Shown: positions 43,483 to 51,780 of the stretch, piece after piece
Position numbering within the stretch: the first letter of the stretch is position 1
How the letters are laid out: each line of letters opens with the position of its first letter
Source: Syntrophales bacterium
GTDB lineage: Bacteria > Desulfobacterota > Syntrophia > Syntrophales > UBA6807
DNA: 64,000 bases
Direction: 5' to 3'
NCBI GenBank assembly: GCA_040767195.1
Contig: JAXGPA010000001.1
Coordinates: 128,001-192,000 of the forward strand
Position numbers and translations under genes: made by a program
The notes under the pieces: model-generated
Told to the model about the DNA's origin: nothing
Seen by the model: only the letters and a program-made list of their open reading frames with translations
Database searches by the model: none

Positions 43483-43752
43483 GAAAAGAACATACAGAAT
43501 GCATTCTTCAAAGTCAAGAAAAAAATAACCGGAAAAAATAAGGACGCTTGAAAGCCTTGTCCGCCCCCCCCTGACTCTCTGTCTCCCCGGCGATCCGGGA
43601 GGCCTGACACGCGAAAAACCATTGACAGGCCTACCCCTTTGTGCTACCCAAGAAGGCGAAATATTTCATAATCACAGAAAATTACCCCGGGTGGAGAAAC
43701 CCTTTCAACGGCCGGGGTTCTTTTGAAAACGAAGGGGACAGGGCAGGCTCAC

Positions 43753-44130
43753 ATGACGCTCTTCGAAGTGATGGACATACTGAACGCCAGGCTTCTTGTC
43801 GGCCGGAAGCTTCTCAACACGGAGGTGAAGACGGCTTTCTCCGCCGACCTGCTGAGCGACGTTCTCGCCTATGCCCGCCCCGGGAGCGTCCTCCTCACGG
43901 GCCTGACCAATCCCCAGGTCGTTCGAACGGCGAGCGTCCTCGACATCGCCGCCATCATCCTCGTGCGGGGAAAGATACCGCCCGCGGAGACCCTCCGCCT
44001 GGCGGAGGAACTGGGGGTTCCCATGATGGCCACCCATTACATCCTCTTCGAGTCATCGGGGCGGCTTTACAGCCGCGGCATGGTCGGCTGTATCCAGAAG
44101 GTCGGGAACGATGAGATTATGGCCCTATGA
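43753..44130 (+). CDS. DRTGG domain protein
   Basis: ADLLSDVLA, LLTGLTNPQVVRTA, ILVRGK. Confidence 0.85.
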   Translation: MTLFEVMDILNARLLVGRKLLNTEVKTAFSADLLSDVLAYARPGSVLLTGLTNPQVVRTASVLDIAAIILVRGKIPPAETLRLAEELGVPMMATHYILFESSGRLYSRGMVGCIQKVGNDEIMAL

Positions 44131-44558
44131 GCCTGATATGTGAAGCGTCATTCCCCGTCCGGGGAGGGGATTTCAAGGACGCGGGGAAAGTGGCTGTCCA
44201 GATAAAAGCGACCCTGAAGAAGCTGGGCATCGACCCTGAAATCCTGCGAAGGGCCGCCATCGCCGCTTATGAATCGGAAGTCAACATCATCTCCTATGCC
44301 CGGCTTGGGAAAATTCACCTGCAGGTGGACCCCGACAGAATCCTGATGAATGTGGAGGACGAAGGCCCCGGTATCGAAGACATTGAACTGGCCATGAGGC
44401 CGGGGTATTCAACGGCGAGCGACCTGATCCGGGAACTGGGGTTCGGGGCGGGCATGGGGCTTGTCAACATCAAGCACTGCGCCGACGAGTTCGAAATCAC
44501 GTCAATGGTGGACCAGGGGACGAAGCTCAGGATATTGATTCACGTCCCTGACGGATAA
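44127..44558 (+). CDS. Anti-sigma-factor-like (RsbW/RsbT) Ser/Thr kinase, HATPase domain
   Basis: YESEVN, DEGPGI, GYSTA, GFGAGMGL, GT. Confidence 0.85.
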   Translation: MSLICEASFPVRGGDFKDAGKVAVQIKATLKKLGIDPEILRRAAIAAYESEVNIISYARLGKIHLQVDPDRILMNVEDEGPGIEDIELAMRPGYSTASDLIRELGFGAGMGLVNIKHCADEFEITSMVDQGTKLRILIHVPDG

Positions 44559-44583
44559 ACAAAAAAACCGAGGGTGGGCGAAA

Positions 44584-44925
44584 ATGAACCTGGCTTCCGT
44601 GGTGGAAAAATTGAACCTGAGAGTGGCCTGCGGACAGGGAGGGCTTGAACGGCCCGTCCGGGGCGGGTATGCCGGCGATCTTCTCAGCGATGTCCTGGCG
44701 AACAGCAGCGAGGGGGATCTCTGGATCACCCGGCAGAACCACCAGAACATCGTGGCGGTGTCGAGCCTCAAGGATCACGCCGGGATCCTCCTGGTCCAGG
44801 GGAAGGAGCCGGAGGCGGATACCCTGGAAAAGGCCGTCAAGGAAGGCATCCCCATCCTTGTCACCGAGCTGACCACCTTTGAAATAGCGGGCCGCCTGCA
44901 CCGGCTTCTTCACGGGCCTTCGTAA
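44584..44925 (+). CDS. DRTGG domain protein
   Basis: GYAGDLLSDVLA, WITRQNHQNIVAV. Confidence 0.85.
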   Translation: MNLASVVEKLNLRVACGQGGLERPVRGGYAGDLLSDVLANSSEGDLWITRQNHQNIVAVSSLKDHAGILLVQGKEPEADTLEKAVKEGIPILVTELTTFEIAGRLHRLLHGPS

Positions 44926-45025
44926 GCGGGACCTTTCAAGGGTCGAAGGGGCGGACCCTTCGGGAAAGTCCGTCATCCCGACAGGGAGGTCGACAAAAGG
45001 ATGACAACCGGAACGATCAATCGAG

Positions 45026-45763
45026 ATGATACAGGAATTCCGATGCGATCTTCATATCCACACGTGCCTGTCGCCGTGCGGGGACCTGGGCATGTATCCC
45101 ACGGCCATCGTGACGAGAGCCCTCGAAGCGGGTCTCCATGTCATCGCCGTCTGCGACCATAACGCGACGGAAAACGTTCCCTCGGTCATCCGGGCCGCGG
45201 CGGGGAAGCCTCTCACCGTCATCCCGGGGATTGAGGTGACCAGCCGGGAGGAAGTGCATCTCCTGGGGCTCTTTGATAACATGAACGCTCTATCGGAACT
45301 TCAGGACATGGTCTACCGCTCCCTCAAGGGGTCGAACCGGGAAGAGAAGTTCGGCTGCCAGGCCGTCGTCAACGAATATGACGAAGTCGAAGGGTTCAAT
45401 GAACGGCTCCTCATAGGGGCGTCGGAGATTCCTCTTCGCCGTGTCGTTGAAGAGATTCACCGCCTGGGAGGGATTTCCATCGCGGCTCATGTCGACAGGG
45501 AAAGCTTCAGCATTCTCGGGCAGCTGGGCTTCATACCCGAGGATCTTCCCCTTGACGCGCTGGAACTTTCCCGCCGAACGGGACCGGCGGAAGCCCGGAA
45601 GTTGTTTCCCCGCATCGCCCGCAGGCCCGTTCTTCGAAGCTCCGACGCCCATTTTATCGAGGACATCGGCAGTGCCTCGACGGTCATCGCCATGAAAGAA
45701 CCGGTTATGGAAGAGTTCAGGAAGGCTTTCCGGGGTGTGGACGGGAGGTACATCAAAACGTAG
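45026..45763 (+). CDS. PHP-domain phosphoesterase
   Basis: DLHIHTCLSPC, CDHN, GIEV, AHVDR, SSDAH. Confidence 0.87.
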   Translation: MIQEFRCDLHIHTCLSPCGDLGMYPTAIVTRALEAGLHVIAVCDHNATENVPSVIRAAAGKPLTVIPGIEVTSREEVHLLGLFDNMNALSELQDMVYRSLKGSNREEKFGCQAVVNEYDEVEGFNERLLIGASEIPLRRVVEEIHRLGGISIAAHVDRESFSILGQLGFIPEDLPLDALELSRRTGPAEARKLFPRIARRPVLRSSDAHFIEDIGSASTVIAMKEPVMEEFRKAFRGVDGRYIKT

Positions 45764-45766
45764 CCC

Positions 45767-46315
45767 ATGCTCGAACTGTCCATGCACATTCTCGACATCG
45801 TGGAGAACTCGATCCGGGCGGGGGCGACCCTGGTCTCCATAGCCATCGAGGAAGACCTGGAGGGGGACCGTTTCCGCATCGAAATCACGGACGACGGCTC
45901 GGGCATGGACGCGGAAACCTGCCGGAAGGCCGTCGATCCCTTTTACACGACCAAGACGGTGCGGCGGGTCGGCCTGGGCCTTCCTCTCTTCCGGCAGGCC
46001 GCTGAAATGACCAACGGATCCTTCTCCATTCGTTGCGGTTCTTCGGGAGGAACGACCGTCTCGGCGGAATTCCAGAGAAGCCACATCGACCGCCAGCCCC
46101 TGGGAGACATGGCTTCCACCCTGAAAGCCCTGTTGGCGGGGAACCCCGCCATGGACCTCGTCTATACACACGGGAGAGCCGGCGCCTCCTACCGTCTCGA
46201 CACCCGGGAAATCCGAGGGGCGCTGGACGGCATCCCCATGGATCACCCGGAGGTCCTGCGGCTGATCGGGGAAAATGTTCGGGATGGGCTTCGGGAAATA
46301 AAGGCGAACCAGTAA
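45767..46315 (+). CDS. HATPase_c ATP-binding protein (histidine-kinase-like)
   Basis: ELSMHILDIVENS, DDGSGM, DPFYTTK, GLGLP, HIDRQPLG. Confidence 0.85.
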   Translation: MLELSMHILDIVENSIRAGATLVSIAIEEDLEGDRFRIEITDDGSGMDAETCRKAVDPFYTTKTVRRVGLGLPLFRQAAEMTNGSFSIRCGSSGGTTVSAEFQRSHIDRQPLGDMASTLKALLAGNPAMDLVYTHGRAGASYRLDTREIRGALDGIPMDHPEVLRLIGENVRDGLREIKANQ

Positions 46316-46354
46316 GTTTAAGATATAGAGATACATAATAAGGAGGAGAAATGA

Positions 46355-46849
46355 ATGAAACCCGGAAATGACGATCAACTGAAAGAATTTACACCGGAAC
46401 AGATCCAGGAACTCGACCGGATCATCGAGGATCACAAGGGCAGGCCGGGAGGTCTCATCCCCGTCCTTGAAAAGGCCCAGGTCGCTCTCGAGTACCTTCC
46501 CATGGCGATTCAGAAACGGATCGCCCGGGGATTGAACCTGCCTCTCAGCCAAGTCTACGGTGTCGTCACCTTCTATTCCTTTTTCACCATGACGCCCCGG
46601 GGACGCCACACCTGCCGGGTGTGCCTGGGAACGGCCTGTTACGTCCGGGGCGGAAAGAGCATCGCCGATAACATTCAGAAAACCTATGGCGTCACGGAAG
46701 GGGAAACGACACCCGATCGCCGGTTCACCTACGAATCGGTCCGCTGCCTCGGAGCGTGCGGGCTCGGTCCCGTGGTCGTCGTGGACGAGGACGTCCACGG
46801 CCGGGTCAAGCCGTCCAAGGTCAGGGAAATCCTCAACCAGTACAGTTAA
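46355..46849 (+). CDS. NuoE/HndA-like [2Fe-2S] subunit
   Basis: VYGVVTFYSFF, CLGTAC, CLGACGLGP. Confidence 0.9.
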   Translation: MKPGNDDQLKEFTPEQIQELDRIIEDHKGRPGGLIPVLEKAQVALEYLPMAIQKRIARGLNLPLSQVYGVVTFYSFFTMTPRGRHTCRVCLGTACYVRGGKSIADNIQKTYGVTEGETTPDRRFTYESVRCLGACGLGPVVVVDEDVHGRVKPSKVREILNQYS

Positions 46850-46876
46850 CGAAAAGCACAGGCACGGAGCGCAATC

Positions 46877-47260
46877 ATGGGAAAGATAAAAATCGAAGAC
46901 CTCAAGAAGATCAAGGAACGGATCGGTTCGGAAAACGCCCTCCGGGCGGGCGAACGGCGGGTCAAGGTGACCGTCCACATGGGAACCTGCGGAATCGCCG
47001 CGGGCGCCAGGGAGGTCATGAATTCCCTGATCAATGAAATCAACGAGTCGGGTGTGAACGACGTGGTGGTCACCACGTCGGGATGCATGGGCCTCTGCAG
47101 CCGGGAACCCCTCGTCACCGTCGAGGTTCTCAGCGAGGAACCGATCAAGTACGAGCATGTGGACCCGAACAAGATGCGCCAGATCTTCAAGCGCCACATC
47201 CTGCAGGGTGAAGTCCAGACCCCCTTCGTCCTGGCCAAGGGCCGGGAAAAGACCGAATGA
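46877..47260 (+). CDS. Thioredoxin-like [2Fe-2S] ferredoxin (HndB-like)
   Basis: HMGTCGIAAGA, GCMGLCSREP. Confidence 0.87.
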   Translation: MGKIKIEDLKKIKERIGSENALRAGERRVKVTVHMGTCGIAAGAREVMNSLINEINESGVNDVVVTTSGCMGLCSREPLVTVEVLSEEPIKYEHVDPNKMRQIFKRHILQGEVQTPFVLAKGREKTE

Positions 47261-47280
47261 CATAAGGAGGTTCATATCCG

Positions 47281-50200
47281 ATGAAGGTATTCCGCTCTCA
47301 TATATTGCTCTGCGGGGGAACGGGCTGTCACGCCTCCGGCAGCATCGCCGTCCGGAAAGCTCTTCTGGAGGAGCTGGACAAAAGGAAACTTTCCGATGAA
47401 ATCCGCCTGGTGGAAACGGGGTGCAACGGCTTCTGCGCCATGGGGCCGATCCTCGTCGTCTACCCCGAGGGGATCATCTATATGCTCGTCCAGCCCGGCG
47501 ACGTGCCCGAGCTGGTGGAGGAGCATTTCATCAAGGGACGGCCCCTGGAGAGGCTCTTCTACAAGGAGCCGACGACGGAAGAAGTGATCCCGACGATGCA
47601 GGAGATCCCCTTTTTCGCCCTTCAGGAGCTCCGGGTTCTTCGGAACCGGGGGCTCATAGACCCCGAGAAAATCGACGAGTACATCGCCCGGGACGGTTAT
47701 TCCGGCCTGGCCAGGGCCCTGTCGGAGATGACCCCGGAAGAGATCGTCGATGTCGTCCTCAAGTCCGGCCTCCGCGGCCGGGGAGGGGCGGGGTTTCCCA
47801 CGGGACTGAAATGGAAATTCGCCGCCCAGTCTCCCGGGGACATCAAGTACGTGCTCTGCAACGCCGACGAGGGTGATCCCGGGGCTTTCATGGACCGGAG
47901 CGTCCTGGAGGCGGACCCTCACTCGGTCCTCGAGGGCATGGTCATCGGGGCCAAGGCCATCGGGGCCCACAAGGGTTACATATACTGCAGGGCCGAATAC
48001 CCCCTGGCCCTGAAACGGCTTGACATCGCCATCGAACAGGCACGGGAGTACGGGCTTCTCGGCCAGGACATCCTGGGGACCGGCTTCGACTTCGACATCG
48101 AGGTCTACCAGGGCGCCGGCGCCTTCGTCTGCGGTGAGGAAACGGCTCTCATGACCTCCATAGAGGGGAAGCGGGGAATGCCCCGGCCACGGCCGCCTTT
48201 TCCCGCCCTGAAGGGCCTCTGGGGAAGACCGAGCGTCCTGAACAACGTGGAGACCCTATCCAGCGTCCCCGAGATCATCCTGAAGGGCCATGAGTGGTAT
48301 GCCTCCGTGGGAACGGAGAAAAGCAAGGGGACCAAGGTTTTCGCCCTCACGGGGGACGTGAACAACGTCGGCCTCGTGGAAGTGCCCATGGGAACGACCC
48401 TGGGGACGATCATCTACGACGTGGGAGGCGGGATCCCCGGCGGCAAAAAATTCAAGGCCGTTCAGCTCGGCGGGCCCTCGGGAGGCATGATCCCCGTCCA
48501 GCACCTGAACGCTCCCGTGGATTACGAAACCATCTCCGACCTCGGGGCCATCATGGGCTCCGGCGGCATGATCGTCATGAACGAGGACAAGTGCGCCGTC
48601 GACATGGCCCGCTTCTTCATGGACTTCTGCCAGGAGGAATCCTGCGGGAAATGCACGCCCTGCCGCGAAGGAACGAAGCGGATGCTCGAGATCCTGACGA
48701 ACATCTGCAACGGAAAAGGCAAGGAAGGGGACATCGAGCTTCTCGAGGAAATGGCCGCCATCATCAAGGATGCCTCCCTGTGCGGCCTCGGCCAGACGGC
48801 TCCCAACCCCGTCCTGAGCACCATCCGTTATTTTCGAAGCGAATACGAAGCTCACATACGGGACAAGAGGTGCAGCGCCGTGGTCTGTTCCGCCCTCTTC
48901 AAGTCGCCCTGCCAGCACGCCTGTCCCATCGGCATGGATGTTCCCTCCTACGTCGCCCTGATCCGGGCCGACCGCCTGGAAGACGCCTACAAGGTCATGC
49001 TCCGGACGAACCCCTTCCCGTCTGTCTGCGGGCGGGTGTGCGACCACCAGTGCCAGTCCAAGTGCCGCCGGCAGACCCTGGACGAACCCGTGGCCATCAA
49101 GTTCCTGAAGCGGTTCATCACCGACAGCGCCGACCGGCCCAAAGTGGAGAAAGTTCCCGTGACGAGGAACGAAAAGATCGCCGTGGTCGGCGCCGGGCCG
49201 GCGGGCCTCACCGCCGCCAAGGACCTCGCTCTCAGGGGTTACTCGGTGGTCGTTTTCGAGGAGCTTCCCGAAGCCGGCGGCATGCTCCGTTACGGGATTC
49301 CCTCCTACCGGCTTCCCCGAAACATCCTGGCGAAGGAAATTGAGGCCATCGCCGCCCTGGGTGTGGACATCCGGTGCAACACCCGGATTGGACGGGACAT
49401 CTCCCTGGAACAGGTCCGGAAAGAATTCGATTACCTCTACCTGGCCCCGGGGGCTCACAAAAGCCAGCGCATGGGCGTGGAAGGAGAAGACCTCCAGGGC
49501 GTTTACGGCGGTGTCGAGTTTCTGCGGGACTTCAACCTTGATGAGGAGAAGTGGCTCAAGGGTGAAAAGACCCTGGGCCGGAAGGTGGCCGTGGTGGGCG
49601 GGGGGAACTCGGCTATCGACGCCGCCCGGTGCGCCTTGCGCCTGGGTGCGGAAGTCACCATCCTTTACCGACGCCTCCGGGCCGACATGCCCGCGGCGGA
49701 AGAGGAAATCGTCGCGGCGGAACACGAAGGCATCAAAATCGAGTACCTCGTGGCTCCCCTCAAAATCGTCGGAAAGGACGGCAACGTGACGGGCATCCGC
49801 TGTCAACGGATGGAACTGGGCGACTTCGACCGCTCCGGCCGAAGGCGGCCCGTGGCCGTTCCCGGTTCCGAGTTCACCCTGGACGTGGACGCCGTCGTCG
49901 CCGCCATCGGCCAGGCGCCGGACGTCTCCTTCGTTCCCGGTGACAGCGGGGTGGCCGTGAACAAGTGGGACACCTTCGATGTGGAAAAGGGCACGAAAGC
50001 CCAAACCAGCCATCCGAAAGTCTTTGCCGGGGGGGACGCCGTCACGGGACCCTGGACGGTCGTCGGCGCCATCGCGGCAGGACACCAGGGAGCCGAAGAA
50101 ATCGACAGCGCCATCCGGCTGGCCAACGGCGAACCGCCCTACGAGGCCCCCGCCGAGGAAGCCATCGACATCCCCGCCGTCATTGACGAGGAGACGGAAG

Positions 50201-50337
50201 AACGCCCCCAGGCGGCCATGCCGGAGCTGGAACCGTCGGAGCGGAAAAGCAACTTCCGGGAAGTGGAGACGGGGTTCGCCAAGGATGTAGCCATCCAGGA
50301 AGCGATCCGCTGCCTCCGGTGCGACCTGGAAATCTGA
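47281..50337 (+). CDS. NuoF/HndC-like flavoprotein fused to a GltD/NfnB-like FAD-NAD(P) oxidoreductase
   Basis: CGGTGC...CNGFC, GRGGAGFP, NADEGDPG, CGKCTPCREG, SLCGLG, CQHACP, CGRVC, GAGPAG, GGGNSAID, YRR, RCLRCD. Confidence 0.9.
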   Translation: MKVFRSHILLCGGTGCHASGSIAVRKALLEELDKRKLSDEIRLVETGCNGFCAMGPILVVYPEGIIYMLVQPGDVPELVEEHFIKGRPLERLFYKEPTTEEVIPTMQEIPFFALQELRVLRNRGLIDPEKIDEYIARDGYSGLARALSEMTPEEIVDVVLKSGLRGRGGAGFPTGLKWKFAAQSPGDIKYVLCNADEGDPGAFMDRSVLEADPHSVLEGMVIGAKAIGAHKGYIYCRAEYPLALKRLDIAIEQAREYGLLGQDILGTGFDFDIEVYQGAGAFVCGEETALMTSIEGKRGMPRPRPPFPALKGLWGRPSVLNNVETLSSVPEIILKGHEWYASVGTEKSKGTKVFALTGDVNNVGLVEVPMGTTLGTIIYDVGGGIPGGKKFKAVQLGGPSGGMIPVQHLNAPVDYETISDLGAIMGSGGMIVMNEDKCAVDMARFFMDFCQEESCGKCTPCREGTKRMLEILTNICNGKGKEGDIELLEEMAAIIKDASLCGLGQTAPNPVLSTIRYFRSEYEAHIRDKRCSAVVCSALFKSPCQHACPIGMDVPSYVALIRADRLEDAYKVMLRTNPFPSVCGRVCDHQCQSKCRRQTLDEPVAIKFLKRFITDSADRPKVEKVPVTRNEKIAVVGAGPAGLTAAKDLALRGYSVVVFEELPEAGGMLRYGIPSYRLPRNILAKEIEAIAALGVDIRCNTRIGRDISLEQVRKEFDYLYLAPGAHKSQRMGVEGEDLQGVYGGVEFLRDFNLDEEKWLKGEKTLGRKVAVVGGGNSAIDAARCALRLGAEVTILYRRLRADMPAAEEEIVAAEHEGIKIEYLVAPLKIVGKDGNVTGIRCQRMELGDFDRSGRRRPVAVPGSEFTLDVDAVVAAIGQAPDVSFVPGDSGVAVNKWDTFDVEKGTKAQTSHPKVFAGGDAVTGPWTVVGAIAAGHQGAEEIDSAIRLANGEPPYEAPAEEAIDIPAVIDEETEERPQAAMPELEPSERKSNFREVETGFAKDVAIQEAIRCLRCDLEI

Positions 50338-50389: not shown

Positions 50390-50499
50390 ATCGGCAAGCC
50401 GGTCGATCCGATGGTCCCGTTTGACAAAACGGGATCCGTTACCAAAATTAAAAAAAAGGATTGCAATCAACCGGCTAACCCGGTGAGAGGGAATAACGG

Positions 50500-50964
50500 A
50501 TGGATCACAGCCTGTTTTTTCGGGAATGGACCTGGGACGGCCGGGGAAAATACATCGACGACAAGGGACAGATCATGCCCTTTGAAGGCACGGCGAGAAC
50601 CTTTCACGAGGAAGGCCTGTGGCTCCACGAAGGAAAGATGACTCTCACGCCCGTAGAAGGGCCGCCCCTTTCCATTGTAAACCGACAGGAGGTCCTCCCC
50701 TTCGAAAAGGAAACGATGATAACAGAATGGACCACACGGAATCCCCATCTCGGGGTCCTGACGGGACACTTGGTCATCGTCGACGAGGCCATTCTGTCCC
50801 TCTGCCGCTCGGAAAACGGCCTTTTTACAGGCTGCGAGACGTTCCTGCGGATTGACGATGAAATGTACGGCAGCTGGGGAACCCTATTCCGGCAAGGGGA
50901 GCGGATCTCGTCGTGGACGCTTCGATTCAGGAAAAAGGCCCAGGTCGATAAGCCTAATGAATGA
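50500..50964 (+). CDS. Hypothetical protein (beta-rich)
   Basis: 154 aa ORF with GAGGGG RBS, co-oriented directly upstream of msrA. Confidence 0.6.
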   Translation: MDHSLFFREWTWDGRGKYIDDKGQIMPFEGTARTFHEEGLWLHEGKMTLTPVEGPPLSIVNRQEVLPFEKETMITEWTTRNPHLGVLTGHLVIVDEAILSLCRSENGLFTGCETFLRIDDEMYGSWGTLFRQGERISSWTLRFRKKAQVDKPNE

Positions 50965-50970
50965 GCGACA

Positions 50971-51780
50971 ATGAGAAAGGGTGTCCTGATTTTCACTTTT
51001 TTCCTGGGGATTGCCGCGTTCTTCCTGATCACCGGAATTCCGGGGACGTCGATTGTCAAAAATGCACCGGACTCGGATTTCCCGGGAAAAGAGAGAAAAG
51101 AACCCATGATTGAAATACGGAAAAAGGCTTCTCCGCAAAGGTCGCTCCCCCTGATGGACCTGGCCCGTCCCGAGAATGTGGAAACAGCGACTTTTGCCCT
51201 CGGCTGATTCTGGGGACCCGACTCCCGGTTCGGGAGCCTGCGGGGCGTAATCCGGACGAAGGTCGGGTACGCCGGCGGGAATAAGGAAAATCCCACCTAT
51301 TACAGCCTGGGCGACCACAGTGAAACCGTCCAGGTCGTTTACGACCCCACCGTCATCAGCTACGGGGATCTTCTCGACATCTTCTTCGAAAGCCACGATG
51401 CTGTGAAACCATCCTGGTCCCGCCAGTACGCTTCGGTCATCTTCTACCATGACGATCGTCAGAAAATGCTGGCGGCGGAAAAGAAAAAAGCCCGGTCCGA
51501 TGTTCTTGGGACGCGGCTCTTTACGGACATCGTCCCCTTTACCGTCTTCTATCCGGCAGAGGACTACCACCAGAAATATCACCTGAAACGGCACGGGGAA
51601 CTTGCCGGCTCGTACGAGGCCATCTACCCGGATCCGGAAGATTTCGTCCGGTCCACCGCCGTGGCCCGGGTCAACGGTTATGCCGGGGGATACGGCCTCG
51701 CCTCGCAGCTCAAGGAAGAAATCGACCTTCTCGGCCTGTCGGAAAAGGGACGGGCCGTCCTACTGAAACTTGTTCGGTAA
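50971..51780 (+). CDS. msrA: Peptide-methionine (S)-S-oxide reductase MsrA, probable selenoprotein (UGA at 51205-51207 read as Sec)
   Basis: Continuous frame ATFALG-[TGA]-FWGPDSRFG...VGYAGG..PTY..GDHSETVQVVYDP...QYASVIF...FYPAEDYHQKY; TGA occupies the catalytic Cys position of GCFWG. Confidence 0.88.
51208..51245 (+). promoter_or_regulatory. Bacterial SECIS-like stem-loop
   Basis: CTCCCG-GTT-CGGGAG (51222-51236); loop starts with G about 20 nt after UGA; lower CCCG/CGGG pairing. Confidence 0.65.

Follow-up and report, generated by a model that had tools for sequence, protein, structure and literature searches.

How is a gene to be read when an open reading frame list cuts it in two, and its frame nevertheless runs on through the stop codon between the pieces? 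This question is raised by positions 50971-51780 on the forward strand of the window (the whole stretch of 64,000 nucleotides of Syntrophales bacterium DNA that was analyzed), where an MsrA frame is listed as one piece of 78 aa and one of 125 aa. According to the original prediction, the frame is continuous through TGA 51205-51207 at the MsrA catalytic motif and encodes a selenoprotein devoid of Cys, and thus of a resolving Cys, with an N-terminal signal or transmembrane segment and a SECIS-like hairpin behind the TGA. Translation bears out the continuous frame, which comprises 78 codons, the TGA, 190 codons, and a TAA, with no second stop. If the TGA is translated as selenocysteine (Sec, U), the product has 269 aa and contains the stretch ALG-U-FWGPDSR with Sec at codon 79. 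The Cys count of this product is zero, U79 being the only stand-in for one.

The assignment as an MsrA is based on profiles, alignment, and structure match. The product scores 140.8 bits against PF01625 (cut-off 23.7) and 119.9 bits against TIGR00401 (cut-off 108.1). It consists of a catalytic domain (residues 69-207, 51175-51591) and a C-terminal helical domain (51592-51777), the latter matching PF20939 with 23.1 bits, marginally below the cut-off of 23.7. The nearest solved structures are those of the MsrA of Clostridium (Alkaliphilus) oremlandii (CoMsrA; PDB 4LWJ, 4LWK-M, 4U66, 4W8C), found with an E value of 6e-60 over residues 69-266. The predicted model, which has a mean pLDDT of 88.3 with values above 95 from residue 61 onward and around 50 in the leader, matches PDB 4LWJ with a target TM of 0.90, the helical domain being covered. 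Compared with the product of locus L205, which matches the CoMsrA residues, the identity is 48.5% over 202 ungapped columns, and this gapless alignment runs to residue 269. The active-site set U79, F80, W81, Y110, E118, Y153, H200, and Y203 is present; across 44 aligned sequences, G78, F80, W81, Y110, E118, Y153, and H200 are invariant and Y203 nearly so. Judged by its sequence, the product has MsrA activity with very high probability. CoMsrA shares with it the GUFWG site with one Sec (U16, equivalent to U79) and no Cys, the combination of a catalytic and a helical domain at about 49% identity without gaps, and the position of the hairpin. A Cys-free Sec-MsrA is, hence, not new but of the CoMsrA type already characterized in the available parts of PMC4333827 and PMC4479559.

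Across the homologues, the predicted alternation between Cys and UGA at the catalytic column is seen. Among the best 80 of 586 confirmed genome loci, the column holds TGA in 71, TGT or TGC in 8, and a frameshift in one; the order-level relatives G015 and G010 have TGA too. In a further sample, comprising 301 genomes of one clostridial order, 29 loci were fetched and 28 parsed; 27 of these have TGA and one has TGT. Within the best 80 loci, selB scores above the cut-off in 66 of the 71 genomes with TGA as opposed to none of the eight with Cys. The best 120 protein-database matches listed show a different picture, with Cys in 102 and Trp in 18 at the same column. Since Trp would abolish the nucleophile, these 18 cases, as judged from the protein records, are most likely UGA codons to which gene callers applied a different translation table. 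The two views of the family, TGA in 71 of the best 80 DNA loci as opposed to 102 Cys and 18 Trp in the best 120 protein matches, thus mark an annotation blind spot. Contig X3 (record 19, 50897-51231), which stems from a separate DNA run of 2016 in another study, has the same TGA as the window. This contig ends 24 bases beyond the codon, less than the 31-base bridging rule of the tool, and differs from the window by a single synonymous base at 51015.

The hairpin CTCCCG-GTT-CGGGAG, consisting of a 6-bp stem and a GUU loop, was found at 51222-51236, 15-29 nt 3' of the TGA and in line with the predicted distance of about 15-30 nt. In bacteria, SECIS elements follow a spacing rule of 16-37 nt, and the loop G stands here at +21. 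A G in the apical loop of the SECIS is described in the available part of PMC1976440. The folding energy of the hairpin is at chance level compared with shuffles (z of 0.04, -1.04, and -0.76), and its stability was dropped as evidence; support for the SECIS comes instead from conservation across the family. The codons of the stem are fixed in the 74 sampled TGA genes, namely Ser TCC (39 of 39), Arg CGG (44 of 46), and Gly GGG (70 of 74), whereas Gly and Arg codons outside the stem are spread. An 8-pair helix at this site is paired in 77.4% of cells of the TGA genes, with 56 two-sided changes. Its covariation of 0.255 stands against 0.116 in shuffled alignments (reached in 0 of 500) and 0.137 in the best slid control, both of them lenient controls, since the window sequence itself supplied the structure and the aligned genes share ancestry. 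This leniency does not account for the contrast with the eight Cys genes, where the same helix is paired in 37.5% of cells and gives no covariation signal. Taken together, the TGA column, the co-occurrence with selB, and the covariation confined to TGA genes support the predicted Sec-MsrA, and UGA 79 is almost certainly inserted as selenocysteine. A Sec-MsrA with a GUFWG site is also a listed prokaryotic selenoprotein family in what is available of PMC13188914, PMC9312934, and PMC1976440.

The gene departs from CoMsrA at its N terminus. Residues 1-25 (50971-51045) consist of MRK followed by a hydrophobic 19-mer that reaches 2.58 on the Kyte-Doolittle scale, and neither a lipobox Cys nor a clear cleavage site is found in this leader. 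It is predicted to be either a signal anchor or a cleavable Sec-pathway signal. Of 200,000 stretches of 45 codons drawn at random from contig C1, 58 show a start codon with a comparable hydrophobic segment. Leaders were called in 55 of the 74 sampled TGA genes (31 signal or anchor, 21 lipobox, 3 Tat-like) by a crude hydropathy rule that misses at least two likely ones (L154 and L168), and in 92 of the best 120 protein-database matches listed. Hydropathy, rarity in random stretches, and the leaders of relatives thus speak for the predicted N-terminal segment, and the long form is likely exported. CoMsrA differs in this respect: L205, its 209-aa match, has a stop 24 codons 5' of Sec and is without a leader, and a hidden leader upstream was rejected. 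Compared with it, the gene described here has a leader and a start at codon -33 in addition. Twin-arginine leaders of the Tat-like type occur in a few relatives (L107, L105, L131, and L109; P0034 and P0039), others having a lipobox or a plain anchor.

The start at -33 is ATG 51106, which lies in frame exactly 33 codons 5' of Sec within an unstructured, purine-rich stretch containing GAGAG (51086-51108). Initiation here is predicted from the sequence to yield a cytoplasmic form of 224 aa. An in-frame linker ATG at -31 to -35 from Sec is present in 31 of the 55 leader-bearing TGA genes, at exactly -33 in 17 of them, although the residues flanking the -33 ATG are unconserved. The genes with such an ATG span eight phyla. 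Linker ATGs as a whole (n=59) resemble true starts in their Shine-Dalgarno (SD) energies, their median being -5.6 where the best N-terminal starts have -5.8, as compared with -2.6 for ATGs within the domain (n=156) and -2.1 for other linker codons (n=1827); p-values are herein overstated because the sampled sequences are kin. Among the 120 protein matches listed, 16 of the 28 leaderless ones begin at exactly -33, some of which may reflect the choice of an internal start by the gene caller. In the clostridial sample, each of the nine clear lipoprotein TGA genes, one being a duplicate of L165, has an internal ATG. Its SD energy ranges from -5.3 to -11 and its position from -19 to -42 instead of being fixed at -33, and the sole Cys lipoprotein of that sample has no such ATG. 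Because the leader types differ among relatives, the export route appears to vary while the internal start is kept. The ATG at 51154 (-17), in contrast, lies inside a conserved P-I/M-D stretch in a weak and structured context, and is unlikely to be a start. The original prediction had treated 51106 and 51154 as alternatives to the first ATG; 51154 falls away, and 51106 is probably not a matter of either/or. Since it occupies the conserved second-start position of the family, the balance leans toward both starts of this gene being used, as far as sequence can tell.

Initiation at the first ATG alone, with one exported or anchored enzyme and with ATG 51106 as an ordinary Met or a relic, is unlikely. 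Such a reading agrees with the weak SD energy before 51106 (-4.2 kcal/mol) and with the lack of any linker ATG in 16 of the 55 leader-bearing TGA genes, but it leaves unexplained why this ATG sits at the exact modal position although the linker around it is not conserved, why its purine-rich surroundings are unstructured, and why its SD is stronger than that of ATG 50971 (-1.9 kcal/mol). The negligible SD of ATG 50971 would instead suit the converse, namely initiation at 51106 only, a cytoplasmic enzyme like CoMsrA, and a leader that is vestigial in this species. The leaderless forms scattered over the tree point the same way, as does contig X6 from an RNA library (depth 6.8), where the leader's T6 run (window 50997-51002) is longer by one T, which would shift the frame to end at TGA 51111-51113, adjoining ATG 51106. 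This extra T is either a strain variant or an error, and the separate DNA run has T6. Sole use of 51106 is nonetheless quite improbable: chance seldom yields an open hydrophobic leader, most TGA relatives have one, the X3 strain has changed its leader only synonymously, and the first ATG, 6 nt past the upstream stop codon, may be served by translational coupling. The two-start reading is, therefore, retained, and it is rather probable overall that the gene encodes a Sec-reading, Cys-free MsrA of the CoMsrA type with an exported and a cytoplasmic form. In a quick-method tree with 44 of 79 inner branches open, leaderless and Cys forms are scattered and the order of events is not readable. The contigs from RNA libraries cover parts of the gene and were rejected as expression evidence, as they cannot show transcription, start, or strand.

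Of the Sec genes on which the prediction depends, selA (476 aa) and selB are both intact in the source assembly (G000), whereas selD and tRNA-Sec (selC) were absent by family searches, a relaxed ARAGORN run, and a pattern search, most likely because of an assembly gap. In the sample of relatives, selD is found in 34 and tRNA-Sec in 32 of 41 genomes, and both are present in G001, a genome of the same genus that is about 0.9 Mb larger. In G001 and G002, selC follows mfd-nadA-moeA, and selD lies beside a selenium-associated LysR gene and thrC. None of these surroundings was recovered from G000: alr, thrC, nadA, and moeA gave zero tblastn matches at E 1e-3, mfd gave paralogues only, and an orthologue of the LysR gene is absent. 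Among the 39 tRNAs of G000, the Ser and Asn acceptors are both missing. As the neighbors of selC and selD and tRNA-Ser are gone as well, an assembly gap is likely, and a sizeable block of the genome is probably missing from the assembly. Pending the finding of selC and selD, we infer that the host decodes Sec.

UGA codons at known Sec sites occur in four formate-dehydrogenase-type genes of G000, a BCP peroxiredoxin, a CoA-disulfide-reductase-like gene, a UXX-star glutaredoxin-like gene, and an AhpC/TSA redoxin. The scan by a dicodon model and hairpin filter thereby returned at least eight genes of known families besides msrA. All eight have a stem whose triloop begins with G and lies at +19 to +24, compared with +21 in msrA. 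A scan for UGA read-through by codon score was discarded, since its 510 candidates were swamped by antisense frames.

That the gene is instead a pseudogene, with selC and selD lost, UGA terminating, and the frame a relic, is very improbable. The absence of both genes from a genome rated 98.8% complete could be taken in its favor, as could the sole trace of tRNA-Sec, a 39-nt piece that is 90% like its 3' end (C1:720241-720279); yet tRNA-Ser and tRNA-Asn, indispensable to any cell, are missing to the same extent, as are the neighboring genes named above. Among these, moeA is required for formate dehydrogenases, of which G000 has four. Furthermore, selA, selB, and the eight other Sec genes are intact, the same-genus genome G001 has kept selD and selC, and of the strain changes 3' of the UGA that are listed, five of seven are synonymous by hand mapping. 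A reading of UGA as Trp or Cys by an altered genetic code, for which the Trp in 18 of the 120 protein matches listed might speak, or a sequencing error has a negligible probability, as genes of this genome terminate at TGA, Trp would remove the nucleophile, TGA tracks selB, and the independent run (X3) has the TGA too. The 39-nt piece itself adjoins a low-GC membrane-protein gene and resembles a scar left by an element formerly integrated at selC.

With UGA 79 read as Sec through the downstream hairpin, the gene would give two products, a membrane-anchored or periplasmic form of 269 aa and the 224-aa cytoplasmic form. By analogy with CoMsrA, the Sec79 selenolate would attack methionine-S-sulfoxide held by Y110, E118, and Y153, upon which Met would be released and a selenenic acid left on Sec79. 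For CoMsrA itself, the available parts of PMC4333827 and PMC4479559 describe that Sec attacks methionine-S-sulfoxide, that a resolving Cys is lacking, and that catalysis can proceed via a homodimer linked at the catalytic residue. Recycling is achieved by glutaredoxin and not by thioredoxin (PMC4479559, available part), a route that would be out of reach for an exported form. As a resolving Cys is absent here too, the selenenic acid would have to be resolved from outside, either by a partner directly or through formation of a Sec-Sec homodimer. The likeliest reductant of the cytoplasmic form would be the UXX-star glutaredoxin-like selenoprotein (C6 near 98712), in analogy to Clostridium Grx1. 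For the exported form, we favor a homodimer formed at the membrane and reduced via a CcdA-like and thioredoxin-like relay. A candidate for this relay in G000 is an ArsG/ArsF-family pair on C11, one member being a membrane protein that is CcdA-like, the other an exported protein with CxxC; sulfide or another small molecule might act as the reductant instead. This reduction step is a doubtful guess, and the relay idea is weakened by the inability of thioredoxin to reduce CoMsrA (PMC4479559). A DsbD-family match in G000 was rejected as a proven CcdA, being an ArsG-family protein beside ArsF. Within 4 kb of msrA, a recurrent reductant neighbor is absent among the loci compared; the only recurrent redox cluster consists of msrB or msrAB (14 loci), and MsrB was not found in the incomplete G000 assembly. 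The AhpC/TSA Sec redoxin P0122 was rejected as a dedicated partner, close homologues being present in 4 of 16 genomes with leaderless and 5 of 34 with leader-bearing msrA, which shows no co-occurrence with the leader-bearing forms; all nine homologues look leaderless. P0122 itself (L185, C7 near 322647, at the contig end) has a short hydrophobic N-terminal extension that is absent in these nine.

Two known systems invite comparison. In Neisseria, the available text of PMC6210582 describes one msr gene, PilB, that gives a periplasmic form and, from an internal AUG, a cytoplasmic form. The principle of serving two locations from one gene by an internal start would be the same. However, PilB, which is fed by DsbD, uses Cys with a resolving Cys and is fused to MsrB and to its own thioredoxin-like domain, whereas the gene described here has Sec, no resolving residue, and no fused reductant. 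It is a single MsrA without fused thioredoxin-like or MsrB domains, and its two forms would differ by the leader only. MsrPQ is a periplasmic methionine sulfoxide reductase that repairs envelope proteins (PMC8076862, available part). Envelope repair would be the common feature, but MsrPQ is a molybdopterin enzyme supplied by MsrQ, has no sequence relationship to MsrA, and lacks stereospecificity. An exported or two-start Sec-MsrA is not described in the available portions of the literature searched, which includes PMC6316033, PMC8076862, and PMC13515050, although selenoproteome supplements may list such genes. Hence, the enzyme type is known, and the leader with a conserved second start is a variant unreported in the literature searched.

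The sole biochemically studied member of the family is leaderless and glutaredoxin-dependent, whereas about three-quarters of the sampled Sec forms carry a leader. We tentatively suggest that a widespread gene family of anaerobes, largely hidden from protein databases, employs a leader together with a conserved internal start to supply the same selenoenzyme to either side of the membrane. The outside copy, which has neither Cys nor a linked redoxin, would then be reduced again by an extracytoplasmic route not described so far, either via Sec-Sec dimers and a CcdA-like relay or directly by sulfide. If true, this would constitute a selenium-based envelope repair pathway distinct from both MsrPQ and PilB/DsbD. 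If the long form is exported, strict anaerobes of many phyla would mend oxidized envelope proteins by a selenoenzyme. The conserved second start furthermore provides a ready candidate set of bacterial N-terminal proteoforms.

Upstream of msrA and on the same strand, a 154-aa gene (50500-50964) is DUF3598/DUF3833-like by Atlas features and fold. It is possibly co-transcribed and translationally coupled with msrA, and it is absent from the recurrent neighbor clusters of msrA loci. A promoter-like site at 50421-50448 was dropped as it is at chance level (one found, 0.7 expected). Farther upstream, 43723-50337 contain small genes, which we take to be DRTGG/CBS, kinase-like, and PHP-like, followed by NuoE-like and ferredoxin-like genes and a 1018-aa fusion of a NuoF-like protein and an FAD oxidoreductase. 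This cluster resembles the partner operons of bifurcating hydrogenases or formate dehydrogenases.

Elsewhere in G000, further UGA genes were encountered. The 'GUGVC' membrane ORF at C1:736180 was rejected as a selenoprotein, as three homologues have neither TGA nor Cys at this position. A membrane-anchored beta-carbonic anhydrase (L188, C10 near 121982, reverse strand) has a frame that could pass a TGA as S-U-E-G-C to a second TGA; its hairpin at +32 may be a terminator, and it is a weak candidate. At C6:172885-173385 on the reverse strand (L186/L234), a gene encodes 167 aa with a hydrophobic N terminus and a Gly-rich tail ending in G-U-G-C, and belongs to no Pfam or NCBIfam family. Eight other homologues shown are without the G-U-G-C tail. 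The 51% identical orthologue in G001 (L235) ends in G-U-G-C-S and has the same hairpin behind the UGA, and the C6 gene is a candidate for an undescribed selenoprotein.
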